Shown here in pieces: positions 1,959 to 53,872 of a DNA stretch of 61,208 nt; position 1 is the stretch's first letter; the number at the start of each line of letters is the position of its first letter. Source of the DNA: a virus. Lineage: Duplodnaviria > Caudoviricetes. Under the pieces are notes generated by a model. That model did not search any database and was not told the origin of the DNA. It worked only from the letters and a program-made list of their open reading frames with translations. The stretch spans positions 1 through 61,208 of IMG/VR virus record IMGVR_UViG_3300032227_000235. One strand, written 5' to 3'. Made by a program: the position numbers and the translations under genes.

Positions 1959-1966
<8 letters not shown>
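1151..1966 (+). CDS. Zn-ribbon virion protein with C-terminal R-x-T-x-x-G-x-x-R repeats
   Basis: CDRCGF...VCQKCMD cysteine pairs followed by repeated RxT[QEH] units. Confidence 0.7.
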
Positions 1967-4070
<2,104 letters not shown>

Positions 4071-4071
4071 G

Positions 4072-6375: not shown

Positions 6376-7454
6376 TGAAGATCTGCGTCTACGCAATAGC
6401 AAAGAACGAGGCAAAGCATGTCAAACGATTTTGTGAATCCGCGTCAGGCGCAGATTACATCGTTATCGCAGATACGGGATCAGAGGACGACACGGTGCAG
6501 ATCGCGCACGATTGCGGAGCCAGTGTCTACTCTATCACTGTTACACCTTGGCGGTTTGATACTGCTCGCAACGCTGCTTTGGCTTTGGTTCCCGCCGATG
6601 TCGATGTCTGCGTCTCTCTTGATCTTGATGAAGTTCTAGAACCGGGATGGCGTGAAGAGATCGAGCGGATGTGGGTAGCGGGCGTTACTCGTCTGCGTCA
6701 TAGGTTCGATTTTACGCAAGGGCATGTTTATGAAGCTATGCGGGTTCATGCGCGTCATGGCTACATCTGGAAGTTTCCTTGCCATGAATTTCAGGTTCCA
6801 GATCCTCGCATAGTCGAATTGACTGTTACGTCTTCGATGATCTTGATCTCGCATAAGCCGGATAAAGATAAGAGCCGTGGTCAGTATATTGATATGCTGG
6901 AGATGGCGCTGAAGGAAAATCCTGACTGCACGAGAAGTCAATTCTATTATGCTCGTGAATTGTTTTATTACTCAAGATGGGCTGATGCTATTTTGGAATT
7001 TGATAAGTATCTATCAAAGCCTGATGCAACATGGAATGCGGAGAGGTGCTATGCTCTTCGTATAACCGGCGAGTGCTATGACTCAATTGCTGATCACAAG
7101 AATGCTGAGATCAGATTTATGCGGGCCTGTGCTGAATATCCTACGACACGAGATCCGTGGCTATCGTTAGCGCGGCATTATCACCATCGTAAGATGTGGT
7201 CTGAATGCTTTGGCGCCATTAGTCGGTTATTCCAGATTGAAGAGCGCAATTATGATTATGTTGCGTTGCCTAATAGCTGGTCGCATGAGCCGCATGATTT
7301 AGCAGCATTGGCTGCTTGGAACATGGGTTTGAGAAGTGAGGCTATTTATCACGGTAGGAAAGCTGTCGAATTATCTCCTGATGATATTCGCCTAGCGGAT
7401 AATCTAAAGTGGTATCTTGGCGAGAAGAATATCGAGGTTGCTGATGCAGCTTGA
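6375..7454 (+). CDS. GT2 glycosyltransferase with C-terminal TPR repeats
   Basis: KICVYAIAKNE, DTGSEDDT, RFDTARN, DLDE (DxD) and HE motifs; helical TPR-like C half; TAATG coupling to fibre 2. Confidence 0.9.
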   Translation: MKICVYAIAKNEAKHVKRFCESASGADYIVIADTGSEDDTVQIAHDCGASVYSITVTPWRFDTARNAALALVPADVDVCVSLDLDEVLEPGWREEIERMWVAGVTRLRHRFDFTQGHVYEAMRVHARHGYIWKFPCHEFQVPDPRIVELTVTSSMILISHKPDKDKSRGQYIDMLEMALKENPDCTRSQFYYARELFYYSRWADAILEFDKYLSKPDATWNAERCYALRITGECYDSIADHKNAEIRFMRACAEYPTTRDPWLSLARHYHHRKMWSECFGAISRLFQIEERNYDYVALPNSWSHEPHDLAALAAWNMGLRSEAIYHGRKAVELSPDDIRLADNLKWYLGEKNIEVADAA

Positions 7455-8235
7455 TGCTTTCTTCAAAACCGTTCGCCGGACGATATTTGGCGGATCTTTA
7501 ACGGTCGGTCAGGTCGAAGGCATGGAGAAGATCCTTGCCTATTGGGAAGAGACATATCCTCGTATGCCTCTTGATGAGATGGCGTATGTCTTAGCGACGA
7601 TTGCTTGGGAGACGGGCCGCAGGATGGTTCCGGTTCGTGAGGGTGGTGGAGAGAGATATTTACGGACGAAGAAATATTATCCGTGGGTTGGTGAGGGTCT
7701 CGTTCAGGTAACGTGGGAAACAAATGCACGGAAGCTAGGCGCCAAAAAGCCTGGTGATTTAATGCAATGGCCGATTGCTCTTCATGCTGCTTTTTACGGT
7801 ATGACGACCGGTATGTTCACTGGCAAGAAGCTATCTGATTATATCGCCAATGGTCGTAGAGATTATATTGGCGCTAGAAGGATTATTAACGGCGTAGATA
7901 GAGCTTCTGAGATTGCAAAATATGCGGATGATTTTCGTATTGCGCTGTTGATATCTCGCAAGCCAGTTGCGCCTCCTGCTCCTGCTCCTGCTCCTATCCC
8001 GGATATTCCGAATGTTCCTGTTGCGGATTACGATCAATTCCGTTCGTGGCTATTGAAAGCTATGGCGGAAGATCCGGAGGTCCGTGGCGCGTTGCTTGCG
8101 GTTGTGTTCCCGGACGATCCTGAAGGCGATCCAGATCCAATGGATGCGCCGCATAGCGAATATGGGCCTGAATATGATCCGGAATATACTCCGGAAGTCG
8201 CCTATGCCGAAGAGCCGGATGCCAGATATGGTTGA
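7444..8235 (+). CDS. Endolysin, GH19-like lysozyme fold, with Pro/acidic C-terminal tail
   Basis: AYVLAT..WET, G.GLVQVTW, FTGKKLSDYI, ARRIING.DRA..IA motifs. Confidence 0.8.
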   Translation: MQLDAFFKTVRRTIFGGSLTVGQVEGMEKILAYWEETYPRMPLDEMAYVLATIAWETGRRMVPVREGGGERYLRTKKYYPWVGEGLVQVTWETNARKLGAKKPGDLMQWPIALHAAFYGMTTGMFTGKKLSDYIANGRRDYIGARRIINGVDRASEIAKYADDFRIALLISRKPVAPPAPAPAPIPDIPNVPVADYDQFRSWLLKAMAEDPEVRGALLAVVFPDDPEGDPDPMDAPHSEYGPEYDPEYTPEVAYAEEPDARYG

Positions 8236-8689: not shown

Positions 8690-9421
8690 ATGACGACCGG
8701 CCTAAATTATACAGGGTTCGTAAAGCAGATCGCCCGCATGGCTGTGGTCGAGGAGGATGATCCTAATTTTTTGGATATCCTGCCGCAAGCTATCACTTAT
8801 GCCGAAAATCGGATTTACCGCGACCTAGATTTTCTTTTTACGTCGATCGCTAACGAAGATTATAACCTGATCGCAAACCGCCGCGAATTGACGGTTAGGG
8901 CTGGCACGTTTGTTGTGCTTGAACAGGTGAATGTTGTGACGCCGGTAAGCGCCTTCACGGCTGATGATGGCGTTCGCAATCCATTGTTGCCGGTTACGAG
9001 AGATTTCATAGACGCAACATGCAATTCTGCTGCTGGTGCGACTGTTCCTAAATATTTTGCTGTTGTTGGTAATGAGGGCGGCAATCTTTCTATCATTGTT
9101 GGGCCGCGTCCTGATGCAGCATACAAAGTAGAGCTGGTAGGAACATTCCGCCCTGACAGTCTTTCTGCGTCTAATACGACTACATTTGTCAGTAGTAATC
9201 TTCCAGATCTGCTGACGATGGCTGCGATGATTTATATTTCCGGCTATCAGCGCAATTTTGGCGCTACTGCGGCGAACGATCCTCAGATGCCGATTAGCTA
9301 TGAAACGCAGTATCAGGCGTTGTTGATGGGCGCGATGAGTGAGGAAAGCCGCAAGAAGTTTGAGGCGGCTGCTTGGTCTTCAAAATCATCATCTCCAGCC
9401 AGTAAACCGACGCGAGGGTAA
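8690..9421 (+). CDS. Tail adaptor / tail tubular protein A-like
   Basis: I..AENRI.RDL, PKYFA, GP.PD..Y.VE, PDLL..A motifs typical of podovirus adaptors. Confidence 0.7.
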   Translation: MTTGLNYTGFVKQIARMAVVEEDDPNFLDILPQAITYAENRIYRDLDFLFTSIANEDYNLIANRRELTVRAGTFVVLEQVNVVTPVSAFTADDGVRNPLLPVTRDFIDATCNSAAGATVPKYFAVVGNEGGNLSIIVGPRPDAAYKVELVGTFRPDSLSASNTTTFVSSNLPDLLTMAAMIYISGYQRNFGATAANDPQMPISYETQYQALLMGAMSEESRKKFEAAAWSSKSSSPASKPTRG

Positions 9422-9424
9422 GCA

Positions 9425-11722
9425 ATGGCCCATGCGACGATGAAATTGGCGGCTGGCGTCAATCAGAATAAAACGCCGGCATTAAATGAAGCGGCGTTTA
9501 GCGAGACTAATCTCGTTCGTTTTATGCCTGACAAGAGTGGTCTTGGTCTTGTTCAGAAACTAGGCGGATGGACTAAGTTCTATCCTTCAGGATTTGGCAC
9601 AACGATCCGCGCACTTTGGGCATGGCAAGATTCAATCCCAGAAAAGCATCTTGCTGTTGGCGCCCAAAGCGAAGCCGTCAAAATGACTAGCGGTCAGGGA
9701 AATGGCGCACAGGCTATATTTCAATATTCTGGCCCGCGAATATTTACGGTAGGATCTACGATTACCGTTACAGGATTTGTTCCTGAAGAGTATAACGGCG
9801 TTTTTACTGTTCTACGTTCTACGCCGGGAGAGATTATCTATCCTTGTGCTGAAAAAGGACAGGTCAGTGAATTTGGTGAGATCTCTACGGGTGACTCTCT
9901 TTATGTGATAACGGAGAATTCTCGCGTTATATTGACGCCAACATTTACAACAAGTGAGCCGCAAACTGCTCTTTCGACTATTAGTGGATCTGCAAAGGTT
10001 ACTGTTAAAGATCCGGGATCAAAGGTTGTTGACGGCGATAGTGTTTATATTAAAACGCAGATTAGTGTTGGTGGGATCATTATATTTGGCACATATCCGG
10101 CAACTAATCTGAGTGATGATAAATATACTATTGTCTCGCGCAATATATTAGGCTCCGCTAATCCGGCAGATAAAACGCTGGTAGATACAGGGTTTCTTCC
10201 TCGATTTTTATTCACGCAGAATTCTGCCGAAGTCACGGTTATATTGCCTGATCATGGCTATAGCGACGGCGATACGTTCCCGATTTTAATCCCGGTATAT
10301 AATGGTTCATTAAAGCTAGACGGTAATTTTATTGTATCTGTTGCTGAAGGCACTGATGCAAAGGATCGTTTTACTATTCAGGCTACACGTCTTTACAAAG
10401 GAGATGGGCGCCCGGAAGTAACGCTGAATAATGGCGTTCCGTATTTAGAATATTATCGTTCTCCCGGCCCGATGCCGACAAGTGTTGGCTATGGCGTTGG
10501 CGGCTATGGTCTCGGTGGCTATGGCGTAGGCGAAGAAGATCAGACGCAATTAACTGGTGGTCGCGGTATTCCGATTGTTGCAAAGGATTGGACTTTAGAT
10601 AATTGGGCTGATGAGCTAATTTCTTGTCCTGTTGGCGGCGCTATTTATCGCTGGAATCCTCTTCTGGGAACAGCGCAAGCGACGTTAATCCCGAATGCTC
10701 CGATGATTAGCGACGGCATGTTTGTCGCCATGCCACAAAGGCAGATTGTCTCATGGGCAACTACATTTAACGGAATTCAAGATCCTCTTTTGATCCGTTG
10801 GTGTGATGTCAATAACTATGACGCATGGGTTGCGACTGTTACTAATCAAGCTGGATCTTTCCGTATATCGAAGGGATCTCGTATTGTCGGTGGCATACAA
10901 GGCCCACAGCAAGGCTTGATCTGGACTGATCTCGCTGTCTGGTCGATGCAATATTCTGGCTTGCCTCTTGTTTATCAGTTCACAGAGATCGGAACGGGTT
11001 GTGGATTAATCGGTCGCAAAGCTGCTGGTTCTATGTCTGGCGCCGTATTTTGGATGGGCGTTAGCCAATTCTTTATGCTTGGCGGTTCTGGTGTCCAAAC
11101 AATTAACTGTCCTGTTTGGGATGTTGTATTTCAGGATCTAGATACTAATAACGTCGATAAGATCCGTTTTGCGGCAAACAGTAATTTTGGTGAGGTTGCC
11201 TGGTTCTTCCCGACAAAATCATCAAACGGTGAACCGACACGATACGTTAAATATAATACGCAGTTAGATGCTTGGGATTATGGATCTCTTGATCGGACGG
11301 CTTGGATTAATCAGAATGTTTATGGTCCTCCGATTGGCGCCGGTTTAAGCAATTACATTTATCAGCATGAAACATCGTTGGACGCTGATGGCGTCCCTAT
11401 GAAATCATGGTTTCAAACTGGCTACGCTCAAATGGGCGAGGGTGAATACAAGCTATTTATTGATCAGGTATGGCCCGATTTTAAGTGGAATTATTTTGAT
11501 CAAGATACGAGCGCGCAATTAGACTTGTCATTCTATGTTACAGACTATCCCGGCGATAGCCCGCGTAAGCATGGGCCTTATCGAATGAATAAGGCAAAGG
11601 ATTTTATAAGCCCTCGATTTAGAGGTCGTCTTGTTTCCATCAAGGTCGAGAGTAGCGATTACAATTCTTTCTGGCGGATAGGCGCTATGCGCTACCGCTA
11701 TACGCCGGATGGGAAGTTCTAA
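9425..11722 (+). CDS. Tail nozzle / tail tubular protein B-like (beta-propeller) protein
   Basis: N-terminal NLVRF...QKLGGW; LIWTD, GCGLIG, VFWMG, RFRGR motifs; podovirus tail position. Confidence 0.75.
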   Translation: MAHATMKLAAGVNQNKTPALNEAAFSETNLVRFMPDKSGLGLVQKLGGWTKFYPSGFGTTIRALWAWQDSIPEKHLAVGAQSEAVKMTSGQGNGAQAIFQYSGPRIFTVGSTITVTGFVPEEYNGVFTVLRSTPGEIIYPCAEKGQVSEFGEISTGDSLYVITENSRVILTPTFTTSEPQTALSTISGSAKVTVKDPGSKVVDGDSVYIKTQISVGGIIIFGTYPATNLSDDKYTIVSRNILGSANPADKTLVDTGFLPRFLFTQNSAEVTVILPDHGYSDGDTFPILIPVYNGSLKLDGNFIVSVAEGTDAKDRFTIQATRLYKGDGRPEVTLNNGVPYLEYYRSPGPMPTSVGYGVGGYGLGGYGVGEEDQTQLTGGRGIPIVAKDWTLDNWADELISCPVGGAIYRWNPLLGTAQATLIPNAPMISDGMFVAMPQRQIVSWATTFNGIQDPLLIRWCDVNNYDAWVATVTNQAGSFRISKGSRIVGGIQGPQQGLIWTDLAVWSMQYSGLPLVYQFTEIGTGCGLIGRKAAGSMSGAVFWMGVSQFFMLGGSGVQTINCPVWDVVFQDLDTNNVDKIRFAANSNFGEVAWFFPTKSSNGEPTRYVKYNTQLDAWDYGSLDRTAWINQNVYGPPIGAGLSNYIYQHETSLDADGVPMKSWFQTGYAQMGEGEYKLFIDQVWPDFKWNYFDQDTSAQLDLSFYVTDYPGDSPRKHGPYRMNKAKDFISPRFRGRLVSIKVESSDYNSFWRIGAMRYRYTPDGKF

Positions 11723-12087
11723 TGGCCACGATCGATGATCTCTTTACAGCGCAGAAGAATGGCGTCGTCGCTATTAATACGCTGAACCAGACATGGCTTC
11801 TTTATAATCGCAGACAGCATGGCGACCATACATCCAAGTGTGTGACTGTTCCTACGCTTATTACAACTGGCAAGGGATATATTGCTACGGTTTCGGTTGT
11901 TGATGAGGGTAAGACTACGGGCTTGATCTACAATTATGGATCTATTGAGCAAGTTTCTCCTGATGCACGACTTGTCGCTATTCCAAAAGAGATCGGTGTT
12001 TTTCGCGTAGATTGTCAATTCGATAAAGGCATTGTTGTTATTCCAGGTGATGATCATGCAATCACCGTAACATTCACGTTGGATTGA
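11722..12087 (+). CDS. Conserved small tail-module protein
   Basis: Coupled ORF; ATIDD..TAQKNGVVAIN start; beta-rich. Confidence 0.6.
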   Translation: MATIDDLFTAQKNGVVAINTLNQTWLLYNRRQHGDHTSKCVTVPTLITTGKGYIATVSVVDEGKTTGLIYNYGSIEQVSPDARLVAIPKEIGVFRVDCQFDKGIVVIPGDDHAITVTFTLD

Positions 12088-12089
12088 AT

Positions 12090-12470
12090 ATGGCTTATCC
12101 TGCGAACAAAGTTTGGGTTGGTCCTATCCCGTCTGATGTCTGCGGGAGAACGGATCATTTGCCGGTTAATGTTCCGGCTGGAGCGTATGTGATTACTGCT
12201 GACAATGTGTCTGCATCTGGAGAGGGAAACACCATTGCGGGCTTTAAGGCTTTGAATGGTTTCTTTGGAATTCAGAAATATCGCGGTGGAGAAAAGCGAG
12301 AGGTTCTTGTTGCTGGTGGCGAATATGTCGTCGATCCGCAATGCGTTGAAAATTATGTTGGCGGTGGAGATCTGGAAGCCGGTCAACATGCTCTTGATGG
12401 ATTTCAAATATTAAATCGCAAGAAGCATATTGATACGCTGAAGAATCTACCTGGGCCGAAAAAGGATTAA
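12090..12470 (+). CDS. Small protein with two G-[EA]-Y-V modules (tape-measure C-terminal-like)
   Basis: GRTDHLPVNVPAGAYVITADNV and VLVAGGEYVVDPQCV; resembles the GTSDSIPAxLSxGEFV motif. Confidence 0.6.
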   Translation: MAYPANKVWVGPIPSDVCGRTDHLPVNVPAGAYVITADNVSASGEGNTIAGFKALNGFFGIQKYRGGEKREVLVAGGEYVVDPQCVENYVGGGDLEAGQHALDGFQILNRKKHIDTLKNLPGPKKD

Positions 12471-12473
12471 TAG

Positions 12474-13001
12474 ATGGCTTCTGAGATCAAAGTTCGGATA
12501 GCTACGCCGCAGGATGTCCATGAAGTAATGGATATGGCGATAGCATCTATTGCTGAAACTGGAATGGCGGAAGCTGATCCTGAGATGATCCTTGGTCAGG
12601 TATGGCCGGCGCTAAATCGTTGGTGCGGTATTGTTGGCATAATCGGCAAGACTGGCGAGAGTGCTGAAGGTTGTGTGCTTATGGGCCTTTCTGGTCTTTG
12701 GTATAGCCGCACTCAATTTATTGAAGAAAAGTTTTCTTATGTTCGTCCTGATTTCAGATCAGAGCGTGGCGCCGAAGGTGGACGCGCAACAAAGCTGATG
12801 GAATTTTCGAAAGCTGTTTCAGATGGAATTGAGATGCCGCTTGTTATGGGCGGCTCTGATGCAATCACAGGCAAGTCTATCAAAGGAAAGCGTCGTCTCT
12901 ACAGCCGTATGTTTGGCCGTCAGGTTGGCGCGTATTTCTTGTATGACGCGGCGTCAAGAAAGGGCGCAATGTCTGCTGAAACTGTTATTGTGGAAGGATA
13001 A
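12474..13001 (+). CDS. GNAT-fold virion assembly protein
   Basis: VRIATPQDV start, YVRPDFR..GG.A..LM acetyl-CoA-binding-like motif; sits just before ejection proteins. Confidence 0.65.
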   Translation: MASEIKVRIATPQDVHEVMDMAIASIAETGMAEADPEMILGQVWPALNRWCGIVGIIGKTGESAEGCVLMGLSGLWYSRTQFIEEKFSYVRPDFRSERGAEGGRATKLMEFSKAVSDGIEMPLVMGGSDAITGKSIKGKRRLYSRMFGRQVGAYFLYDAASRKGAMSAETVIVEG

Positions 13002-13006
13002 GAGCA

Positions 13007-16000
13007 ATGGGTCTCTTTGGTAGCGGCGGCAGAAGCGGTCCAAAACTACAATTCAGTGTTAATAATTACAGCGGATCATCATCGGTGTTTCCGCCAGAAA
13101 AGGTTGCTGAAGCCTATACGAATTCGCTTAACAAAGTAAACCAAGTCGCTAATACGCCTTGGCAAAATTACAGCGATAATCCTTGGAGTTTTGTCGAACC
13201 AACTAATGGCTTGCAAACAGCGGTTGCTAACGAAGTAGGCAATAATAACTGGCGCGCTACTCCGTATATGGGTTACGGTATGGAGTCGCTCAATACTGCG
13301 CAAGATGGATATGGCGCCAGCAATAGTTGGGCGTCAGCAGCCGGTCAGAATGTTGCGAATAATAATATCGCTTCAATGTCTGATCCATATTATCAGCAAG
13401 GAATGGGCTATACTAATTACGCCGCTAACACTCCCGGCGGATATCAGGCTGCTAGCCCGTATCTAAACAGTGCTGGCAGTATGATTAACTATGGTGGTCA
13501 AGGCACCAATCAAATATCACAGGCTGATATTCAGCGTTACATGACGCCGTATCAGCAAGCCGCAATAAACCCGACATTGGATTTAATGAAGCAATCCAAT
13601 GAACAGGCAATGCAGGGCGCGTTGGGCAATATCATCAAGGGCGGCGGCATGGGCAATGACCGTTCCGGCGTGATGATGGCTAATCTGAACCAGCAAAATC
13701 AGATGGCGACTGCCAAAGCTATGGGTGATATGCAAGCAGCCAACTATAATCAGGCTGCACAATATGCGGCTGCTCAACGTGGTCAAAATCAGGCTGATCT
13801 TTCTCGCGCACTACAAGCCGGTCAGTCATATGGACAGTTGGGCGCCACAGCCGGACAATTACAGCAAGCTGACCTAAATCGATATTTAGCTGCGGGCAGA
13901 CAATCGGCAGATATTGGAACAATGCAGCGTCAAGCATATGAGGCGCAGCAACAATTACAGCAAGCTGATCTCCAGCGTAAGCTAGGTGTCGGCCAGCTAT
14001 ACAATGCGAATGCTCAAGGTTTTGCTAATGCCGGCACATCTGCAATGGATGCCGGTTTGCGCTACCAAGCTGGTCAAAAAGACAATCTTGGCCTTCAGTA
14101 TCAAATTGCCTCTGATATGCAGAAAACTAATCAGGCGGCAAAAGATGCAATGTATAATCAATGGTTACAAAGCAGGGCCTATCCGTTTGAAACAACCCAA
14201 TTTGCTCTTGATGCTCTTGCCGGCATTGGCCCGCAATATGGATCAACAACAACTGAAACAGGTGGCTCTAGTGGTTTGAGTTGGAATCTGTTTAATCGAG
14301 GTGGTCGCGTTAAGAAGCGCGGTGGCGGTTCTCTTTCTGATATTCCGGAGGTTGTTGGTCAGACGTTCGATGGCCAGGATATTTATCGCTATCGATATAA
14401 AGAGGGTGGCCCTGCACAGATTGGCTTGATGGCTGATGAGGTTGCTCCTCGATATCCTAATGCTGTTGCAGATCTTGGTGGAAAGCTAGCGGTTGACTAT
14501 ACGCGAGCGACTGATGCTGCGGCTGATCTCGGTCATGCTATGGGTGTCGGTCGTGATCATTTTTCTATTGGAGGTAGAGAAAAGGAAAAAGTTCGTAGTT
14601 TCGTTCCGAAGTTAGCTGTTCGTCCGGGACAGATGGTGACTAGCAAGCCTCGTGGCGCCGGTCCTCTACAGTTTGCGCCTCCGGGTGAAAAACTAGATCG
14701 CTTTGCAGGATTGAAAGAAATAGCGGGCAATGCGCAGGGTCTTTATCAGGCATATAAAGGTCTGAAAGGCATGGATCTTGGCGGCATGTTTAATACTGCC
14801 GCATCAACTGCTGCTCCTGCTGCTGCAATTGCTTCTACTGCTCCAGCGGCGGCTGCGGCTACAACTGCTGCATCTGCTGCTGCTCCTATTAAGGATGCTG
14901 GATCTGCTGTTTCAAATGTTGCTGATGCTGGTCTTGGTTTCTTCGATCCGTTTGAAAAACTATTTGCAGCTAATGGCGGATCAATTCCACATTTTGGTAT
15001 GGGTGGCTTTGCTACGCGGTTTGATGATGAAGACGATCGTCGTCGTGGATCACAAAGTATTGTTCCGCAATCGCGTGGAACACAGCCTTCTCAGATGCCT
15101 GTTTCGCGTCCTAATCGTGAAAAGATTATGGGCAATACTGCCGGCGGCGGTGGCGGCGGTGGTGGCCAACAAAGCGGTGGCGGTGGCCTTGGTGAAATAG
15201 CCGATATGGCTACTAAGGGTATTGGCGCACTAAAGGGTGTAAGTGGTTTAGCCTCTAGTGCAGGATTAGGCGGTCTCGGTAGTATTTTAGGTGGTGGAGC
15301 TGCTGCGGGTGCGGGCGCTGCCGGTGCTGCGGGCGCGGCTGCTGGAGCCGGAGGCTTTTTAAGCGGGATAGCATCTTTCCTTCCATTTCTTGGATTGTTT
15401 TCTGATCCGTCGATGAAGACTGGTGTTGGGAACAGACAGGGATTTTCTTTTGGTGGACCGGAGGATGAAGAGAGACGGCGCCCTTTAGTGGACTTGGCGA
15501 CTATACCGGTTGCCGCTACTGAGAGATCAGAGCCACAAGTTGTTCTTGAGCAGCCAAAGGTTGATCTCGGCACTCCTAAAACAGATGCAAAGCCTATTCT
15601 CGTTGCATCTGCTGATAATCCTAATTTTGCTGATGACGCATTGCCTGTGACGTTAAAGCGTGAAGGAGGCTATACGCCGAATGATGCTGGCGCCGGCGCG
15701 TCTAATAAAGGCATTAACCGTCGCGCACATCCGAACGAAGACATTGAGCATATGACCAATGAGCGCGCTGGTCAGATCTATAAACATGATTATTGGGATG
15801 CTATTGGCGCCGATAATCTTGATCCAAAGATCCGACTGATGGCTTATGACGCGGCTGTTAATCAGGGTCCGGGTCGTGCAAAAGCCTGGGCGGCGCAATC
15901 TGGTGGCGATCCAGAGAAGCTAGCTAAGTTGCGCATGGATCATTATCAAAGCCTACTTGATCGCAATCCTGATACATACGGGCCTTATGCTCGTTCTTGG

Positions 16001-18016
16001 GCGGGTCGAGTTAATGCAGATTTGAGCAAGGCTGGACTGCCGTTAATGGCATTGCACCGTAGTGGTCATGCTACGACAGGTGACACTAGTGGTCCGGATT
16101 ATACGGGCAATGGTGGTGGATCAGATCCGCGTAGTTGGATGGCGACCGCACAAGATCCAAACGATCGCTCTGTGCAAGCTGGTCTTGCTCTTCTCAGCGG
16201 TATTGCTGGTGGTCTTGCTGGCGCTGAACGAGGTGGCATTGCCGGCGCTATTGGTGGCGGTCTTGGTAGTTTTGGCGGCGCCTATGGAAAGATGGCGGAT
16301 GCTGATTTAGATCGTCAGAAATTCAACTGGCAACAGCAAATGGAAACAGAGCGTCTTGGGATAAGTAAATCTCAAGAGGGTCGCGCTGCTGAAGAATATG
16401 AGCGCACTAAGAGTAAGAGTCAGGCGGCGGATAAAATTCTTAAAGATCTGGACAAAACAAGAAAGATTCCTACTGGTGGTTATGGTCCTACGCCAACTGC
16501 TCCGGCTCCTGAAGCGGCTCCAGTAAAGAAAGATCTCGGATCACCGGCTCCTGTCGCACCGGTTACTCCTCCTGTTGAAAATCCCGGATTAGGTCAAACG
16601 CCGGAGGCTCCTGCTCCTGCGCCGCAAAGCCCTAATCCAAATATGAAGATTGAGCCTGGCCCGGAAGGTCCGGAGGTTCCTGTTTCGACGCCTAACGCGG
16701 GTCTTGGAGACAAGCCTGTTAATCCAGTCGAAAGGATTGCACAGCCTGTCGCTGGTCAGCCTGCTCCGAATTCTTCTCCAATAGAAGAGGTTCGCAATCT
16801 TCCAAAAGCTGAGTCTAATCTTCCAGATCCAGCGAAGTTCTGGCGAACGATCGTTGATGAACAAAATCCATACTACTATGCGAATGAGGCTCGTGAGCAT
16901 ATGGCGGCTTACGAAGCTCTGCGTGGCAATCAATTACTGCAATCGTCAGCAAATTCTGAATTAGCTGCTGCGCGTCAGGCTCAACTTGATGCTCAAAAGT
17001 GGGCTAATGAGCCTATGCTTACGAACAACAAAGGAGAGTCGGTTGAAAATCCGTTCTTTGTTGGAACAAAGCGCAAGATCGAAAATGAGAACACACGTTC
17101 TGCTGCGGTAGCAAAAGGAGCTGGTGAATACGGGCCGGAAGTTACTCAATTAAAGCTAAATCAACAAAAGCGATTAGATGAAGAAAAAGATAGGCATGAG
17201 CTTGTTTCGATCTCGCGTGGCCCAGATAAGCCTGAAGAGATGGTTACTAAGGCTGAAGCTCTTCGAATAATGAAAGAAAATCCTAATGCTTCTATTGTTA
17301 CAAAACAGCCAGAGGTCATAGCTAAGAGGCAAGAAGAAGTTAGAGCTAATGTTGCTCAAGAGCGTGAGAAGTTTATGCAGCGGCCAATTCTAGTTCAGCA
17401 ATTGGAGGCTATGGCGAAGGGACTCGAAACGATCAAAACAGGTAAGTTCTCAAAAGAAGCCATCGAGGTGCTTGGCACTCTTGAGTCTCTTGGTATTAAA
17501 GTTCCAGAAAGTGCGAGCACAAATATTGCCGGCTATCAGCAATTTATGAAGAATGCCAATGGCGTTGTTCTGAAGATATTGAAAGATACCAGTAGCAAGG
17601 TTCTTGCGATGGAAATCGGAAATGTCGAACGAGCGAATCCAAACATCGAGTTGCAGCCTGACGCAAACCGTCACATGCTTGCACAAGGTCTTGGTGCTGC
17701 TAGATGGAGCAATGATTACTATAAGGATTTATCTGATTGGTATAACAAGCCTGAAAATCAATATGCGATATCTACTGATGCGTTCGATAAGGCTTGGGTA
17801 GAGTCACATCCTCTTCAGAGTTACATCAATAAAGAAGAGAAGAAGATCTTTGCTGTTGGATCTAAAGAAGAAGGTATGGACCTTTCAAAGAAGGCCGCTC
17901 CCGTTGCTCCAGATCCTTCTACGTTGAAGCAGGGAGAAATATATCCGACACCATCCGGCAATCGTAAATGGATGGGAAATGGTTGGAGTAAGAAAACATA
18001 CGAGGCGGATCAATGA
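13007..18016 (+). CDS. Large DNA ejection / internal virion protein with S74-like segment and GH108 lysozyme domain
   Basis: Gln/Ala/Gly-rich pilot-like N-terminus (YMTPYQQ); IYRYRY...IGLMADEV...VDY; LKREGGY...KGI...IYK.DYWD...DAAVNQG. Confidence 0.85.
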   Translation: MGLFGSGGRSGPKLQFSVNNYSGSSSVFPPEKVAEAYTNSLNKVNQVANTPWQNYSDNPWSFVEPTNGLQTAVANEVGNNNWRATPYMGYGMESLNTAQDGYGASNSWASAAGQNVANNNIASMSDPYYQQGMGYTNYAANTPGGYQAASPYLNSAGSMINYGGQGTNQISQADIQRYMTPYQQAAINPTLDLMKQSNEQAMQGALGNIIKGGGMGNDRSGVMMANLNQQNQMATAKAMGDMQAANYNQAAQYAAAQRGQNQADLSRALQAGQSYGQLGATAGQLQQADLNRYLAAGRQSADIGTMQRQAYEAQQQLQQADLQRKLGVGQLYNANAQGFANAGTSAMDAGLRYQAGQKDNLGLQYQIASDMQKTNQAAKDAMYNQWLQSRAYPFETTQFALDALAGIGPQYGSTTTETGGSSGLSWNLFNRGGRVKKRGGGSLSDIPEVVGQTFDGQDIYRYRYKEGGPAQIGLMADEVAPRYPNAVADLGGKLAVDYTRATDAAADLGHAMGVGRDHFSIGGREKEKVRSFVPKLAVRPGQMVTSKPRGAGPLQFAPPGEKLDRFAGLKEIAGNAQGLYQAYKGLKGMDLGGMFNTAASTAAPAAAIASTAPAAAAATTAASAAAPIKDAGSAVSNVADAGLGFFDPFEKLFAANGGSIPHFGMGGFATRFDDEDDRRRGSQSIVPQSRGTQPSQMPVSRPNREKIMGNTAGGGGGGGGQQSGGGGLGEIADMATKGIGALKGVSGLASSAGLGGLGSILGGGAAAGAGAAGAAGAAAGAGGFLSGIASFLPFLGLFSDPSMKTGVGNRQGFSFGGPEDEERRRPLVDLATIPVAATERSEPQVVLEQPKVDLGTPKTDAKPILVASADNPNFADDALPVTLKREGGYTPNDAGAGASNKGINRRAHPNEDIEHMTNERAGQIYKHDYWDAIGADNLDPKIRLMAYDAAVNQGPGRAKAWAAQSGGDPEKLAKLRMDHYQSLLDRNPDTYGPYARSWAGRVNADLSKAGLPLMALHRSGHATTGDTSGPDYTGNGGGSDPRSWMATAQDPNDRSVQAGLALLSGIAGGLAGAERGGIAGAIGGGLGSFGGAYGKMADADLDRQKFNWQQQMETERLGISKSQEGRAAEEYERTKSKSQAADKILKDLDKTRKIPTGGYGPTPTAPAPEAAPVKKDLGSPAPVAPVTPPVENPGLGQTPEAPAPAPQSPNPNMKIEPGPEGPEVPVSTPNAGLGDKPVNPVERIAQPVAGQPAPNSSPIEEVRNLPKAESNLPDPAKFWRTIVDEQNPYYYANEAREHMAAYEALRGNQLLQSSANSELAAARQAQLDAQKWANEPMLTNNKGESVENPFFVGTKRKIENENTRSAAVAKGAGEYGPEVTQLKLNQQKRLDEEKDRHELVSISRGPDKPEEMVTKAEALRIMKENPNASIVTKQPEVIAKRQEEVRANVAQEREKFMQRPILVQQLEAMAKGLETIKTGKFSKEAIEVLGTLESLGIKVPESASTNIAGYQQFMKNANGVVLKILKDTSSKVLAMEIGNVERANPNIELQPDANRHMLAQGLGAARWSNDYYKDLSDWYNKPENQYAISTDAFDKAWVESHPLQSYINKEEKKIFAVGSKEEGMDLSKKAAPVAPDPSTLKQGEIYPTPSGNRKWMGNGWSKKTYEADQ

Positions 18017-21000
18017 TCGAAGATGATGAAATCCTCTCGAATGAGGCCGTAGGGTTTGCTGCTCCTAGACCGGCGCCGAAAGAAGAAGTTCTTTCTAATA
18101 CGGATGTTGGGTTTGCAAAAAGAAACGATGGTTTCCTTGATCGTAAAGAAGGCGATGGCTGGCTAACTGGCACACTCAAAGGTGGCGCGAGTGCGATCGT
18201 GGAAGGTATTGCGGATATTCCGGGAGTAGTAGGTAATGTCCGTGAGGCAAATAAATATTTATCTGATCGTGTAGGTATGCCTATCGCAGCCGGCGTTATT
18301 AATGCCGTTCGCTATCCTCTCGGCTATGACACGATATCGGCGGATGATATCCGTGCTGCTCGTGATCGTGGCTATGAAAAGATTGATGATAAAAATAGCG
18401 ATATTCGTGGCTGGTTCAAAACGGGTGATCAGATTGCGGCTCCTGTTTTGGAAAAGACAGGTAATTATGAGCCTGACAGCACGGTTGGCAAAATGGCTAA
18501 AACTGCTGTTCGTGCTGTTGTTGGATCTGGCGCATCTGCGGTTCCAGCAAAAACTGGATTGCTGAATCATACCACGGAGGATGCCGGAAAGATCCTTGCG
18601 GATATGTATTCTAAACAAATGGCTGCTACTACGGCTGGTGCTGCTGCGACTGGTGAGTTGGCGACAGAAGCCACGGGAGATCCATTATACGGCATGGCGG
18701 CAGGATTTGCTGGCCCTGCTGCTGCTGGTAAGGCTGGCAAGTTTGCGCTTAAAGTCGGTGCGCCGGCATTGGAAGATATTCCTGGTATTAATCGTTGGGC
18801 GCAAGGCACAAGAGAGCGTTTAGCGGCGGAAGATCTTCTTCGCAAAGCTAGTAATCCTGAAGCTCTTATGGATTGGGCGCGAGGCGATGGTTCGCATCCG
18901 GGATTAGACAAGTTCCCGTTTACGCTTGGTCAGGCTACAGGCGATTCTGGTATTCTTAATCAGGAGTTATCAGCACAAACGCTGAATAAGGACAATTTTG
19001 CTAGTCGGATGAAGGAAAAAGCCGGAGAGCAAACGGAGCGACTGCACGGCGAAGTCACGGCTATGTCTCCGGAGACGGCTGATCCAATGGCCGTTACTGA
19101 TGCGTTTACGCAAAGATATAACCGGATCACGGAGAAATATCAGCAAACTGAAAATGCTCTTCGCCAGCGCGCACAGGAGGCGGTCGCAGCATTAGGAGAT
19201 AGTCCGGGCGCGGCTGCTGTTGGTGAGCAATTGCGAACTGCGATAGCTGAAAATGAGAAGAAATTAAAAAAAGAGGTGGATGATCTATATAGAGGCGTAA
19301 ATCCTAATAAGGATATGCGCGTCATTATTGACGTTGGCACTAAGGAAAATCCATCTGTTCGAGAAGTCGCTGAGAAATTTCACTCAGATAGAGTAGGTGC
19401 GACTAAATACGATAAAAACCTAGAAGAGATGATCCAACTCGTCAGAGAGGCGCCTTCTGTTTGGGATTTTGAGGAGCTACGCGGCGTTGATGAGCGTCTG
19501 TCTAAGGCGATGGAAGAGGCCAAAAACAGCCAAGATCGCGCTCAGTTGGGTATCTTGAAAAATGCTATTAAAAATACGATAAATCAGGCGATCGATAACC
19601 AGATCAACTGGAAGCTGGCTAACGATATACCATTGGATTCCTATGAAGGACGAATTAGACAATCGCACGATGGATTTGCCGCATCTGGAGACGCCGCTCC
19701 AAGTGCTGGAGAGAGTGTTGCCGCAACTGGAACAGACGCCAATTCGTCAATGGCAGTTCATCCAGCATCTAGAGAAGGACGCCCTGCGGAATTCGGATTT
19801 GGTGATGCTAATAGCGGTGAAGGATTGGCGCCGAAAACAGGCGAAACTACACTCTACTATCCCGGCGGCAACAACATAACAGCGCGCCCAAAGATCGTAG
19901 AGTTGGGCGATCTTAAAATATCTCATAATGACGATTTCACCGAAAACAGCCTATACCCGCAAGATCTGCAACCACGAAATCGTGACGCGGCGCAAGCTCA
20001 AGAACAGGTAAACAAATATGCCGGCTCTGAATGGGCGCCGGAGCGTTATGGCGTTACGAACGATGCCAATAGTGGTGCGCCTGTCATTGGTTCAGACGGC
20101 ATTGTTGAAAGCGGCAACGGTCGCACGATGGCTCTTCGTCGTCGCTATAATCAGGGCGATACGTCTTATAAGGAATATCTAGCCTCACAGGGTTATGATG
20201 TCTCTGGCTACGATCAGCCTGTTCTCGTTATGGAGAGAACATCTGAATTTTCGACACCGGAAGCGCGTCAGCAATATACCCATCTCGTCAATAAAGAGTC
20301 CGGTCTTGGTCTCGGCACAAAAGAAGAAGCGTCATCTGATGCTCGTTTCTTAACGCCGGAAGATATCTTCAAGATAAAAGAAGGGCCGCTTACTAGCGAA
20401 GCGAATTCCGGGTTTATTCGTTCCTTCCTTAGTCGTCTTACATCTGGCGATCGCGCACGGTTACTTGATAGCAAGGGCGGTGTTAATCAGCGCGGAATTG
20501 AACGCGCACAGGCGGCTATTGTTGAGCGGGCCTATGGCAATGATGCTGTGATCCGTAGAGGATTTGAGGCGACCGATAATAACGCCAAGAATGTTACGGG
20601 CGCCTTGACTGATGCTGCTGGCCCTTGGGCAAAAATGCGACAAGCCATCGAAGACGGCATGATCGACAAGTCGCATGATATTACTGATGAGTTGATGAAT
20701 GGCGTTGATAAGATCTTACTTGCGCGTGACAAAGGTCGTCCAGTTGCAGAGATCCTTGATCAGGTTGACGCATTTGCCTCGCCGGTAACAAAGGATGTTT
20801 ATCGTCTGCTATTTGATGGCGAGAAGGTAGCAAGCCGGCAAAAGATTGCTGCTCGTTTGAACAAGTATGCTGCGGATTCATTAAAGAATGAGGGCGGTGG
20901 CTTTGGCTTTGGTGAGACACGAGATCCAAAGCATGTCTTGTCTGATGCTCAGAATGTTGTTGTCGAGGGCGAAGAAGCTGTGTCTGCCGGCGCCAAAGCG

Positions 21001-22434
21001 ACTGGACAGTCGCCTAAGACCGGTGATGGCATGGTTATACCTGAGAAGCTGCGCCCTAATATTACGCAAGGGCAAGCTGATCGGTTGAATGAGGCCAATA
21101 CTAAATACGGCAAGATGAAAGATACGCTGAAGCCGGCAAATAGAATGCTGGAAAAGCGGATGGGCGGTGAATATGACCAAGCGGGATCTGCTATTCCTTC
21201 GACGGTTATTAAGGCCGGAGATACCGGTTATCAGACTGCTCAATCTTTCTTGAAGGCTTCTGCTAACGCGCCTCAAGCTGCTACGGCTATGCGTGAGATG
21301 ATCCTAGATCGTTTCCGCAAGGCAATTGGTCGCAATGGAGAGATAGATCCGAATAAGTGGAGCAATCTACAGCGCGATTATGCTGGCGCCATCCGGGCTG
21401 TTGAGGAGCAATCTCCCGGTCTAGCAAAGATGCTGAAAACGCCTGAGACCACGGCTGATGCTTTAGCGAATTTTGGCAAGGAGAGAGATGCCAATACTAA
21501 GGCTCTTCAAAAGGAGGAGGCGGCTAAGTTCCTCGGCAAAGAAAATGAGGTCGAGGTTCAAAACGCTATTGGCGATATTATTAATGGTCGCAATCCATCC
21601 GTCACTAAGTTGCGTGACATGGTCGAGACGTTGAAGGCTGAAAATCCTGATGCTCTTGATGGACTGCGTCAGGCGACGATCGACTGGATCGTTCGCAAAG
21701 ACACGAATGCTGCCAGAACAACAAAGAATGATGATGTTTTCTCATACGCAAAGATCAATACTTTGCTGAAAGAGAAGGCCCATCTTTTACAAGAGATCTT
21801 AACGCCGGAGCAAATGAACACATTGCGGGCGATGCGTGAGACGATGGCTATGGTCAATCGCAGCACCGATCGCACGAGAATTCCTGCTTCTCCTGGCACA
21901 GCCAAAGATATGGGCGCGCATTTTGAAAAGCTCGGTAGAGAGTTGGCTGATAAGTCTGTTCTATTCCTAGCATTTGATACCGTCGCAAATGGCGCAAGCA
22001 ATCCTGGTATGGCTCTCCTTAAAGGCGTCGGTGTTTTTACTGCTGGCAGTCTTTATCGGTTGAGACAACTGGGCATAGATACTGTTGGTGATATTCAACA
22101 AGAGATGTTCCTGCACCCAGAAGTTGCTCGTGCTGCTCTCAAGCGTGTTAAGGGTGAATATTTGCCGAAGCAGGGTGATGCTTTGGTGAGGGCTATTCGC
22201 AATGCCTATCTGAATTCTGGCGCCAATGTAGAGCGCGAACAGCGCGCCTCTGGTGGTCGTCTTGCTTTTGCTGCCGGCGGTCAGGCTCCAAAGCGCAAGC
22301 CAATGACACCGGAACAAATAATTGCTGGCATTGCAAAAGCCCGCAAAGCTGAACAAAAACGGACTGAGGTTATTCTCGACAAGCCTGATGAAGCGGTCGT
22401 CCGTGCATTATCTATGGCAAATCAACATCTCTGA
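18013..22434 (+). CDS. Large ejection protein with ddrB-like ParB domain
   Basis: YPQDLQPRNR...GAPVIG.DG.VESGNGRTMAL at about 19880-20150; otherwise helical. Confidence 0.8.
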   Translation: MIEDDEILSNEAVGFAAPRPAPKEEVLSNTDVGFAKRNDGFLDRKEGDGWLTGTLKGGASAIVEGIADIPGVVGNVREANKYLSDRVGMPIAAGVINAVRYPLGYDTISADDIRAARDRGYEKIDDKNSDIRGWFKTGDQIAAPVLEKTGNYEPDSTVGKMAKTAVRAVVGSGASAVPAKTGLLNHTTEDAGKILADMYSKQMAATTAGAAATGELATEATGDPLYGMAAGFAGPAAAGKAGKFALKVGAPALEDIPGINRWAQGTRERLAAEDLLRKASNPEALMDWARGDGSHPGLDKFPFTLGQATGDSGILNQELSAQTLNKDNFASRMKEKAGEQTERLHGEVTAMSPETADPMAVTDAFTQRYNRITEKYQQTENALRQRAQEAVAALGDSPGAAAVGEQLRTAIAENEKKLKKEVDDLYRGVNPNKDMRVIIDVGTKENPSVREVAEKFHSDRVGATKYDKNLEEMIQLVREAPSVWDFEELRGVDERLSKAMEEAKNSQDRAQLGILKNAIKNTINQAIDNQINWKLANDIPLDSYEGRIRQSHDGFAASGDAAPSAGESVAATGTDANSSMAVHPASREGRPAEFGFGDANSGEGLAPKTGETTLYYPGGNNITARPKIVELGDLKISHNDDFTENSLYPQDLQPRNRDAAQAQEQVNKYAGSEWAPERYGVTNDANSGAPVIGSDGIVESGNGRTMALRRRYNQGDTSYKEYLASQGYDVSGYDQPVLVMERTSEFSTPEARQQYTHLVNKESGLGLGTKEEASSDARFLTPEDIFKIKEGPLTSEANSGFIRSFLSRLTSGDRARLLDSKGGVNQRGIERAQAAIVERAYGNDAVIRRGFEATDNNAKNVTGALTDAAGPWAKMRQAIEDGMIDKSHDITDELMNGVDKILLARDKGRPVAEILDQVDAFASPVTKDVYRLLFDGEKVASRQKIAARLNKYAADSLKNEGGGFGFGETRDPKHVLSDAQNVVVEGEEAVSAGAKATGQSPKTGDGMVIPEKLRPNITQGQADRLNEANTKYGKMKDTLKPANRMLEKRMGGEYDQAGSAIPSTVIKAGDTGYQTAQSFLKASANAPQAATAMREMILDRFRKAIGRNGEIDPNKWSNLQRDYAGAIRAVEEQSPGLAKMLKTPETTADALANFGKERDANTKALQKEEAAKFLGKENEVEVQNAIGDIINGRNPSVTKLRDMVETLKAENPDALDGLRQATIDWIVRKDTNAARTTKNDDVFSYAKINTLLKEKAHLLQEILTPEQMNTLRAMRETMAMVNRSTDRTRIPASPGTAKDMGAHFEKLGRELADKSVLFLAFDTVANGASNPGMALLKGVGVFTAGSLYRLRQLGIDTVGDIQQEMFLHPEVARAALKRVKGEYLPKQGDALVRAIRNAYLNSGANVEREQRASGGRLAFAAGGQAPKRKPMTPEQIIAGIAKARKAEQKRTEVILDKPDEAVVRALSMANQHL

Positions 22435-52648: not shown

Positions 52649-53872
52649 ATGTCTGTAACGACTGCAAAAGCATCTCAGGCTGCTGCCAAAGCGAAAGCGC
52701 ATCGGCTCTGTGGGATGAGCAATACTGAAAAGCCTTTTTATCCTGCTGGTGAGAAGGCAAATGATAAGACGGGTATGCGCCCGATTTCAAAGCAGGGTCT
52801 TAAATCTGGCGGCAAGGTAATTGGTGGCAAGATCACTGGCCCGAAAGCTGCGGCTCGTGCTGATCGTGTTGCGCGCAAGTCTGGTGGTCGCATTGGTAAA
52901 GAGCTTGCCAATATGGATCTTAAAGCTGCGAACAAAGCGCGCAAGGGTGGTGATGATCACGAAGGTGGTTTGAAGCGCGGTGGATCTGCAAAGCCTAAGA
53001 AGGCAATGGGTGGTCCTAGCGGTCGTTTGTCTGAACAGGTTGGCAAAGATCCTATCGCAGAGATGAAGAATGTTCAGCAATACCAGGCTGACAAATCACT
53101 GGATGCTGGTGGTGTCTCTGGCCTGTATGCGGGTTCCATGCGCAAGCGTGGTGGCAAGGTTGGCAAGCCTACGCAGAAAGATAAGGCGTGGAGCAAGTAT
53201 AAGGCTGACGCCAAGGAGGCTGGCATTTCTGAGAAGGATGCAGAAGGCTCAAAGAGCAAGTTCAAGCCGGCTGTTAAAAAGACATCCATGAAAGAAGACA
53301 AGCCTTTCATGTCGAGATCTTTAAAGACAAAGCCTATCGAGGAGAAGAAGAAATTCGCTCCTATGGAAGAGGTTGAGGCTGAATATGATGAGCCAGATCA
53401 CGATGAGATGGACGATGAAAGCGAGATGCCATTAAAGAAAGGCGGTCGCGTTAAGAAGTGGTCTGGTGGTGGTTTCTCTTCTGGTGAGAAAAAGACGAAG
53501 AAGAAGAAAGCCTCTACGGGCAAGAAGAACATCACGAACATTATCATTGCTGGCAATCCTAATGCTACGCCGGCTGCTGGTGCTGGTGCGGCTGTTCCTC
53601 CGATTGCTCCCGGCCCGCGTGTTCCTCCTCCTGTAATGCCAATGGGTGGTGATGGTCCTAATCCTCCTCCTCCTGGCGGTGAGCAGCCAATGCCTCCGTT
53701 GGGTGCGCTTGCTGCTAATCCAATGATGCCACCACAAGTTGGTATGCCTCCGGAAATGCCGCGGCAGATGGCGAACAAGGGCGGTCGCATTGGATCTTAT
53801 GCTTCGATGAAGGCTGGCGCTGGTTCTGGTCTTGGTCGTTTGAAGAAGGCTGGTCTTAGCCTGTCGAAATAA
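52649..53872 (+). CDS. Lys-rich disordered head protein with many KxGG motifs
   Basis: LKSGG, RKSGG, LKRGG, KAMGG, RKRGG, LKKGG, ANKGG; Pro-rich segment; AGAGSGLGRL.K end. Confidence 0.8.
   Translation: MSVTTAKASQAAAKAKAHRLCGMSNTEKPFYPAGEKANDKTGMRPISKQGLKSGGKVIGGKITGPKAAARADRVARKSGGRIGKELANMDLKAANKARKGGDDHEGGLKRGGSAKPKKAMGGPSGRLSEQVGKDPIAEMKNVQQYQADKSLDAGGVSGLYAGSMRKRGGKVGKPTQKDKAWSKYKADAKEAGISEKDAEGSKSKFKPAVKKTSMKEDKPFMSRSLKTKPIEEKKKFAPMEEVEAEYDEPDHDEMDDESEMPLKKGGRVKKWSGGGFSSGEKKTKKKKASTGKKNITNIIIAGNPNATPAAGAGAAVPPIAPGPRVPPPVMPMGGDGPNPPPPGGEQPMPPLGALAANPMMPPQVGMPPEMPRQMANKGGRIGSYASMKAGAGSGLGRLKKAGLSLSK

Follow-up and report, generated by a model that had tools for sequence, protein, structure and literature searches.

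A widespread two-repeat domain encoded among the ejection-protein genes of uncultured podophages

The subject of this analysis is a small gene in a phage of the Caudoviricetes, IMG/VR record IMGVR_UViG_3300032227_000235. This record is a complete genome of 61,208 bp with direct repeats at its termini and is referred to in its entirety as the window. The gene lies on the plus strand (12090..12470), where an ATG at 12090 opens a frame of 126 amino acids (aa) closed by a stop codon at 12468-12470. Its product appears, from comparison with its relatives and from its structural model, to be the minimal, cargo-free form of a widespread and undescribed domain of ~115 aa. Upstream lie a gene that matches the family of SU10-type adaptors (8690-9421), a gene for a 765-aa nozzle-like virion protein (9425..11722, plus strand), which was recognized by a profile match and is called ‘phage stabilization protein’ in MW202675.1, and a gene for a conserved small protein of 121 aa (11722..12087, plus strand), whose stop codon is separated from the ATG of the 126-aa gene by 2 nucleotides (nt). 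The downstream gene begins 3 nt past the end of the 126-aa gene and encodes a 175-aa protein that probably adopts a divergent GNAT fold, as judged from a profile of its homologues (12474..13001, plus strand). Next on the same strand are the genes for a 1669-aa ejection protein with a GH108 lysozyme domain (13007..18016), named ‘internal virion protein D’ in MW202675.1, for a 1473-aa second ejection protein with a ddrB-ParB domain (18013..22434), and for a 257-aa protein. A first-pass annotation of the sequence had correctly placed the 126-aa gene second upstream of that for the 1669-aa protein, and the two modules it quoted are present in the 126-aa protein, GRTDHLPVNVPAGAYVITADNV at residues 19-40 and EVLVAGGEYVVDPQCV at residues 71-86.

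The reading frame is real and stands far above chance. A word-indexed search returned 1417 relatives of 69-221 aa, similar in length to the 126-aa protein, and 737 of 222-2000 aa, and a full HMMER scan of 1.84 billion representatives yielded 1857 clusters at 50% identity with E ≤ 1e-3, 1119 of them with E ≤ 1e-10. Nine residues are invariant over 105 aligned sequences (G11, G19, R20, D22, G51, G77, E78, D103, and R110). There is no invariant serine, cysteine, or histidine in this alignment, and H23 is variable among the relatives. Position 99 is histidine in at least 90% of the sequences, in alignments of both 42 and 105 members, and glutamine in the window protein. The family is nearly absent from annotated collections: the 126-aa protein matches no Pfam family at E ≤ 1, its only match in PHROGs is phrog_36774 (function unknown, E 0.041), and the ESM Atlas returned unnamed viral clusters. 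A megablast search with positions 9000-19000 of the window gave no match. In a collection of 50,697 phage records searched by tblastn with three family members, no cultured phage encodes the domain, which was found only in two uncultured Manatee Spring genomes. Searches of the literature yielded no account of the domain, the one related paper they returned being Iyer et al., 2017; the domain is absent from the accessible part of that text and matches none of the Pfam LPD models, while the supplementary lists of the paper might name it as an LPD.

The two modules, which the first-pass annotation had noted as a tandem, are homologous repeats, since profile-profile alignment by hhalign pairs residues 16-62 with residues 63-126 at 96.5% probability (E 7e-10, 41 columns). 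AlphaFold2 predicts a compact structure for the 126-aa protein from a 105-sequence alignment (predicted local distance difference test score [pLDDT] 92.4, predicted template modeling score [pTM] 0.84) in which a strand-strand-helix-helix unit occurs twice. In repeat 1 (aa 16-62; 12135..12275, plus strand), GRTDH is followed by a predicted β-hairpin carrying PAGAYV, a helix, a GEGN loop, and a second helix (strands 23-29 and 33-35, helices 37-43 and 48-59), and the invariant residues G19, R20, D22, and G51 fall within this unit. Repeat 2 (aa 63-126; 12276..12467, plus strand) comprises a degenerate leader, YRGG, a predicted hairpin carrying AGGEYV, a helix, a GGGD loop, and a long helix (strands 69-75 and 79-81, helices 83-90 and 95-118), and is closed by a conserved tail, TLKxLPGPKKD, that also forms the protein end in the relatives. 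Indeed, the repeat-2 motif starts 50-54 residues before the C-terminus in 235 of the 241 relatives that contain both motifs. The linker between the repeats often contains runs of G-G-P-Y-G or S-G-P-Y in variable number (P0139, P0144, P0153, P0168, P0220, and others), a low-complexity spacer that is absent from the window protein.

Comparisons of the predicted domain with solved structures were negative. No Foldseek match in the PDB reached E ≤ 1e-3, the best score of VIA-align against 48,161 representative PDB chains was a Z of 3.0, and a PDB sequence-profile search with the domain gave rows at the level of chance, such as HGPRT at E 0.067. The matches in BFVD are four uncharacterised proteins from uncultured phages. 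The modeled fold thus appears not to be represented in the PDB searches run, although a missing match leaves similarity possible. These results also bear on whether R20, D22, E78, D103, and R110, all of them invariant, could give the 126-aa protein the activity of a small enzyme or the ability to bind a ligand. The presence in 126 aa of five invariant charged residues, each of which lies outside the groove in which a partner helix is predicted to dock (described below), would suit such a role. There is no similarity to a catalytic family or fold, however, in Pfam, PHROGs, the PDB profile search, Foldseek, or VIA-align, H23 varies, and the histidine that most relatives carry at position 99 is replaced in the window protein, so that a catalytic or ligand-binding function is hardly likely at all.

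Gene order around the domain was compared in two sets of loci. The first consists of 81 viral loci, namely those of the best 80 of 588 relatives together with MW202675.1, and a simple caller of open reading frames (ORFs) recovered the domain gene in 72 of these; the second consists of 30 contigs from bacterial assemblies and one locus with an ADP-ribosyltransferase (ART) fusion. In the viral loci, a homologue of the nozzle protein is encoded no more than three genes upstream of the domain gene in 70 of 72, the next gene encodes a homologue of the 175-aa protein in 63 of 71, and one of the 1669-aa protein is encoded within four genes downstream in 59 of 63. The second set, its two prophage-like loci included, shows the same arrangement, the GNAT-like gene being next in 25 of 28. 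Most contigs of this set are phage-sized and binned into metagenome-assembled genomes, but two loci reside in large contigs, of Ancylobacter sp. (1.25 Mb) and Acidisoma cellulosilyticum (0.88 Mb), and are for that reason probably prophages of Alphaproteobacteria. In a distant phage, MW202545.1, a 639-aa protein has the domain at its end, and the genes directly downstream encode three proteins of the ejection type, one of which contains an SLT domain. The conserved order is therefore nozzle, small protein, domain gene, GNAT-like protein, and large ejection proteins, and the domain gene is a core gene of the internal-virion or ejection-protein operon in a large clade of uncultured podophages.

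The assignment of the 175-aa neighbor comes from its family. A profile of 30 homologues matches acetyltransferases in the PDB (8a9o_A, E 0.0021), and Acetyltransf_7 of Pfam is found in 14 of the 30; the window copy alone has no acetyltransferase match. In a single-sequence PDB search, the protein instead matched complement receptor type 1 (2q7z_A, E 9.2e-07), and its residues 26-162 aligned with residues 522-662 of a ‘central straight fiber’ (8hre_A, E 0.034), odd matches from which the homologue profile differs in pointing to acetyltransferases. The possibility that this neighbor corresponds to the GNAT that some relatives carry as a fusion with the domain was considered and rejected, as BLASTP found no match between them.

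Similar blocks of genes are known elsewhere. In the accessible part of Hardies et al., 2016 (PMC4819975), IVP-A of T7 matches acetyltransferases and is a non-structural assembly factor, and its gene occupies the position of the 175-aa gene. As far as that part of the source extends, T7 (gp13 and gp14) and P22 (gp14 and gp7) also encode small proteins between the gene for the tubular tail B protein or nozzle and those for the large ejection proteins, with a GNAT-like gene in the block. Unlike the small internal virion proteins of T7 and P22, the domain gene precedes the GNAT-like gene and has relatives that carry enzyme cargo, and no homology between the 126-aa protein and T7 gp14 or P22 gp7 was detected in Pfam or PHROGs.

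A physical connection between the domain and the ejection proteins is suggested by a complex model. The partner considered is the 1473-aa protein, which contains a ddrB-like ParB domain (PF18763, E 1e-25, aa 620-742) characteristic of the polyvalent proteins that phages package in their heads. Together with its alignment, the 126-aa protein was modeled against residues 1396-1473 of this partner in three runs, alongside three controls. The interface score ipSAE was 0.61 (0.60, 0.61, and 0.61 in the individual runs) versus 0.00 for the best control. Of solved complexes, 58 of 80 attain this mark, as do 2 of 110 mismatched pairs, a calibration that is only rough here because an alignment of our own was used. 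The runs share at least 70% of their contacts, and the pLDDT of the partner is at least 52. The model supports, without demonstrating, binding of the 126-aa protein to the ejection protein.

The confident contacts on the partner side are formed by an amphipathic helix, RKPMTPEQIIAGIAKARKAE (aa 1428-1447; 22294..22353, plus strand), that is predicted to lie in a groove between the two long helices of the domain, lined by the conserved GEGN and GGGD loops. On the domain side, the contacts comprise residues 43-45, 50-58, 89-94, and 97-112, among them the conserved loops (44-45 and 91-93), G51, G98, L102, and F105. The conserved hydrophobic positions 1436, 1437, 1440, 1443, and 1447 of the helix are among the contacts. 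In 28 distinct C-termini of homologues of the 1473-aa protein, position 1436 is leucine in 22, methionine in 4, and isoleucine in 2, position 1443 is alanine in 22, and position 1447 is isoleucine in 14 and valine in 4. The helix belongs to a C-terminal module (22228..22431, plus strand) that the alignment of the 28 homologues resolves into R-A-S-G-G-R, an insertion with LAFAAGG, the amphipathic helix, and a terminal LxxPDExVxxALxxAN. The element R-A-[ST]-G-G-[RK]-[VI] is conserved, with both glycines present in 28 of 28 homologues, and the module as a whole is found in 31 of the 34 loci with a complete second large protein. A search for homology between this helix and the N-terminal extension of some relatives (see below) was negative, the best E in the window for a hidden Markov model of 73 extensions being 0.98.

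Taken with the gene order, such a complex could also be explained by a non-structural assembly chaperone, which would work with its GNAT-like neighbor to hold the C-terminal end of the ejection protein while heads are assembled and would not remain in the virion. The direct adjacency of the GNAT-like gene (in 63 of 71 loci of the first set and 25 of 28 of the second), the position of the block, which corresponds to that of T7 IVP-A and P22 gp14, and the predicted grip on the ejection-protein helix would all fit a chaperone. The repeated fusion of the domain to effectors of packaged polyvalent proteins, described below, would be odd for a factor that stays in the dying cell, and the strict C-terminal position of the domain with its conserved tail is more suggestive of a docking element. 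A chaperone is accordingly regarded as unlikely, albeit far from negligible.

The first-pass annotation arrived at the 126-aa gene by another route. Many tape measure proteins contain a motif in which FAxGG is followed by G.GTSDSIPAxLSxGE[FY]V, and one repeat of the domain resembles this motif. The annotation took the 126-aa protein to be a free form of the second half of the motif that binds FAxGG tags of several virion proteins in trans, by β-strand complementation, as an adaptor, or that cleaves there. The one trace of a tape measure protein in the PDB profile search is gp16 (8zdo_S), in which two stretches of ~35 residues match, GTGRSDSMLARVSNGEFITRA occurring twice, at a non-significant E of 0.25. 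Tape measure proteins also differ in that the repeats appear to be single, whereas the window domain combines two in one compact unit, and no tape-measure gene context was seen at any locus examined.

In the domain family itself, xAxGG appears to be mainly a cis element. Among 121 diverse representatives (of 149; the 28 that failed to match the two regular expressions used were left out), xAxGG occurs within 50 aa upstream of repeat 1 in 92 and directly before the first strand of repeat 2 in 90. The statement that the 126-aa protein has no N-terminal FAxGG is accurate, but its second module retains a degenerate leader of its own, YRGG, at residues 64-67. hhalign aligns this leader with VCGRT of repeat 1, and the tag thus appears to be the N-terminal edge of the repeat unit. 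In an AlphaFold2 model of the relative P0212, which has GGRVGYARGG ahead of repeat 1 and RYASGG ahead of repeat 2, both tags are coil (pLDDT ~58 and ~74, respectively), and strand docking of the tags in cis is not predicted.

Counts of the tag in other proteins vary with where they are made. FAxGG had been described as scattered over five other window proteins, but the pattern [FYWLIVM]AxGG is at chance level in the window: the four big virion proteins contain 3, a number attained in 148 of 500 within-protein shuffles (expectation 1.9), and the remaining 72 window ORFs contain 4, with an expectation of 3.2. A related pattern, GG[RK][VILA], is enriched in the window (11 observed versus 2.0 expected, a count that none of 500 shuffles attained). 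In relatives, homologues of the 1669-aa protein contain 106 occurrences of hAxGG, versus 33.9 expected (0 of 100 shuffles), distributed over 51 of 75 proteins, although these counts are not independent because the sequences are related. The full form of the tag in the ejection proteins of relatives is [KR]GG-R-[VI]-x-[FY]-A-x-GG, as in RRGGRVGFADGG; its best consensus copy in the window is QGGRVGFAEGGS, at aa 1060-1071 of a 1664-aa protein.

A tag reader that acts in trans would be consistent with several of these observations. The window protein is without the upstream xAxGG that 92 of 121 relatives possess, the form RGGR[VI]x[FY]AxGG recurs in the ejection proteins of relatives, and the tag-bearing segment passed the complex test against its controls. 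In addition, a weak second copy of a tag plus helix, RKSGGRIGKELANMDLKAANKARK, was found in a 407-aa protein of the window (52853..52951, plus strand; E 0.0011 among 1064 six-frame ORFs). In the complex model, however, the FAAGG strand (1419-1423) is not among the confident contacts, which fall on helix 1428-1447 instead. LAFAAGG, within the insertion, is unique to the window sequence among the 28 aligned homologues. The tags of P0212 are predicted to be unstructured in cis, the hhalign alignment equates the tag with the repeat's own leader, and position 99 departs from the family consensus in the window protein. Cleavage at the tags gains no support either, as no match to a protease family or fold was found in Pfam, PHROGs, Foldseek, or VIA-align; no prohead protease able to cut at GG was recognized among the head genes of the window. 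A free reader of FAxGG, by strand complementation or by processing, is therefore considered highly improbable. What stands of the proposal is an adaptor that may bind the tag-bearing region of the ejection protein in trans, through the helix rather than through the tag, and so the tag-reader idea is partly supported, in altered form only.

The relatives of the 126-aa protein indicate a further property of the domain. Many of them are long, at 200 to 1500 aa, and in these the domain forms the C-terminal end, the extra sequence being N-terminal or between the repeats. A Pfam search with ten long relatives identified ART-PolyVal in P0203 and P0220 (and, below the cut-off, in P0237) and NUDIX together with DUF6098 in P0134, and no domain in six; for three long relatives there was no Pfam match. 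Among the 105 members of the alignment, GNAT is found in four, InPase in two, and NUDIX, M15 peptidase, ART-PolyVal, and DUF6496 in one each, whereas 120 long forms listed include five with NUDIX, four with InPase, and two with ART-PolyVal, leaving 109 with none. Cargo resides between the repeats in P0134, P0171, P0192, P0202, P0221, and P0231. The contig of Acidisoma cellulosilyticum provides a clear example, in which a 341-aa protein runs from repeat 1 through NUDIX to repeat 2. No genomic locus was found for the ART fusion P0220. The recognisable partners appear, from these family matches, to be effector enzymes of the phage polyvalent-protein type. Enzyme cargo is shown for a minority only, since most of the fused N-terminal regions contain no recognisable domain.

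Stand-alone forms are nevertheless common, as the domain protein is shorter than 200 aa in 53 of the 72 viral loci. Many stand-alone relatives of 167-170 aa (P0040-P0121) have a 45-aa N-terminal extension that is lacking in the subclade of the window. The DUF6496 match in one of the 105 relatives has an E of 1.1e-05, and the window protein has no such extension.

The abundance of cargo-free forms would be expected if the domain formed an oligomer with a structural role in the tail or core. It might then make up a plug or ring lying between nozzle and ejection proteins, and the cargo fusions would be secondary. Its core gene lies just past those for the nozzle and the small protein, presumably the place of the needle and plug genes of P22, and the invariant charged residues could conceivably make salt bridges between subunits. 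Foldseek and VIA-align, though, reveal no similarity to the folds of solved tail proteins, and inserts of hundreds of residues between the repeats are hard to fit in a tight ring, making such an oligomer decidedly improbable.

A closer functional parallel exists in MuF. Iyer et al., 2017 (PMC5512222) propose, in the accessible sections, that polyvalent-protein enzymes are taken up into the capsid and reach the host along with the DNA, in many cases through a MuF anchor. As far as those sections describe it, the MuF or SPP1 gp7-type domain resembles the window domain in being small, in being encoded by virion genes, and in occurring alone or fused to variable effectors (ART, NUDIX, InPase, and ParB-like). 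In other respects they differ. The window domain has no sequence match to MuF (Pfam, with Phage_Mu_F included), its gene adjoins those for the nozzle and ejection proteins rather than that for the portal (45291-47621), and it is C-terminal rather than N-terminal, with cargo that can interrupt its repeats. The PDB fold searches gave no match, which leaves a resemblance to the MuF fold possible. Terminal signals for cargo are also known from the capsid targeting sequence of T4, the cargo-loading peptides of encapsulins, and the cargo proteins of crAss-like phages. What these share with the domain is a conserved terminal element that would direct variable cargo into a capsid, although here the element would be a folded domain of 115 aa and not a short peptide. 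Concerning the crAss-like cargo proteins, Pfam gave no match for the domain, and the only link is a crAss_CARG1 neighbor in the ESM Atlas at 0.87, which is chance level by the figures of the tool itself.

The favored interpretation is that the domain serves for incorporation into the virion and for ejection, as a carrier or adaptor functionally similar to MuF, a reading whose probability is put a little short of even. The domain would join the virion as part of the ejection-protein complex or attached to it, by clamping the amphipathic helix in the C-terminal module of the second large ejection protein; this helix would sit in the groove that the two long helices form with the GEGN and GGGD loops. 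Since the domain would travel with the ejection proteins, phages may have used it repeatedly as a carrier of enzymes (ADP-ribosyltransferase, NUDIX, pyrophosphatase, and acetyltransferase), which, fused N-terminally or inserted between the repeats, would be co-injected with the DNA. In the window, the carrier would be bare. Both virion incorporation and co-ejection of the domain are inferred.

Several points weigh against this interpretation. As no cultured phage among the 50,697 records encodes the domain, its presence in the virion is a prediction only. All loci were selected for carrying the domain, so that they do not provide a true test of co-occurrence. Docking is represented by a single in silico complex with a low partner pLDDT (53-55) and a rough calibration. 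The C-terminal module of the partner is missing in three of the 34 loci (L093, L101, and L113, the last being that with the ART fusion), and the helix thus cannot be a universal partner. The predicted interface does not include the final 23 residues of the partner, where conservation in that protein is highest, nor does it include the invariant residues R20, D22, E78, D103, and R110 of the domain, for which the interpretation does not account. The fused N-terminal regions lack a recognisable domain in 109 of 120 and 6 of 10 cases. Finally, the retention of a carrier that has no cargo calls for some other explanation.

An extension of the carrier interpretation, itself thought quite unlikely, is that R-A-x-G-G-[RK]-h and an amphipathic helix together constitute a docking code that is displayed on several internal virion proteins and read by the domain, in a tag-and-reader type of cargo loading. 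The proposed sites lie at the C-terminal end of the second ejection protein, at one to five positions in the 407-aa protein, which carries five or six [KR]xGG[KR][VI] sites, and perhaps in the 1664-aa protein. Such a code would serve the phage both for assembling the ejection complex and for loading whatever enzyme is fused to the domain.

The remaining virion genes of the window include those for the terminase, portal, 1664-aa, 407-aa, and major capsid proteins, which are located at 43.5-57.8 kb. The 1664-aa protein (47621-52615) is encoded directly past the portal and contains three repeats of DUF4214 and, at its C-terminus, a GP88 domain (PF17338). The 407-aa protein (52649-53872), downstream of both, has no family match and displays lysine-rich stretches, and it may be a scaffold-like or internal protein. 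Within the 1669-aa ejection protein, SLSDIPEVVGQTFDGQDIYRYRYKEGGPAQIGLMADEVAPRYPNAV directly follows NRGGRVKKRGGG at aa 432-505 (14300-14521), and the homologue from Ancylobacter (L103, 8878-11469) contains LSDERAKEDI...YAYRY...IGLIAQEVAESDPDAV. This region presumably resembles the start of Peptidase_S74, the self-cleaving intramolecular chaperone of endosialidase-type tail proteins. Pfam did not report Peptidase_S74 at E ≤ 1 in the 1669-aa protein of the window, and PHROG families of ‘DNA ejection protein’ span the same region. Two adjacent tail-fiber genes (723 and 767 aa; 1899-6375) have matches to collagen-like repeats and are followed by genes for a predicted β-1,4-glycosyltransferase (6294-7454) and an endolysin-like protein (7417-8235).

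The ejection proteins of podophages, and the loading of extra proteins that are co-injected with them, are poorly understood. That the domain described here is a new carrier for phage-delivered proteins, with a fold unmatched in the PDB searches run, is plausible if slightly less than probable. If true, it would constitute a second carrier principle for phage-delivered effectors, unrelated to MuF and with a predicted docking site, and a docking code read by such a domain would amount to a modular cargo-loading system for phage capsids based on a fold not yet in the PDB. The description of an unannotated family of more than 1800 clusters would improve the annotation of environmental phages and of prophages in Alphaproteobacteria, and the many unannotated N-terminal regions of its members are candidate injected effectors. 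Conceivably, a small domain that accepts both N-terminal and internal cargo could also become a tool for loading proteins into phage particles.

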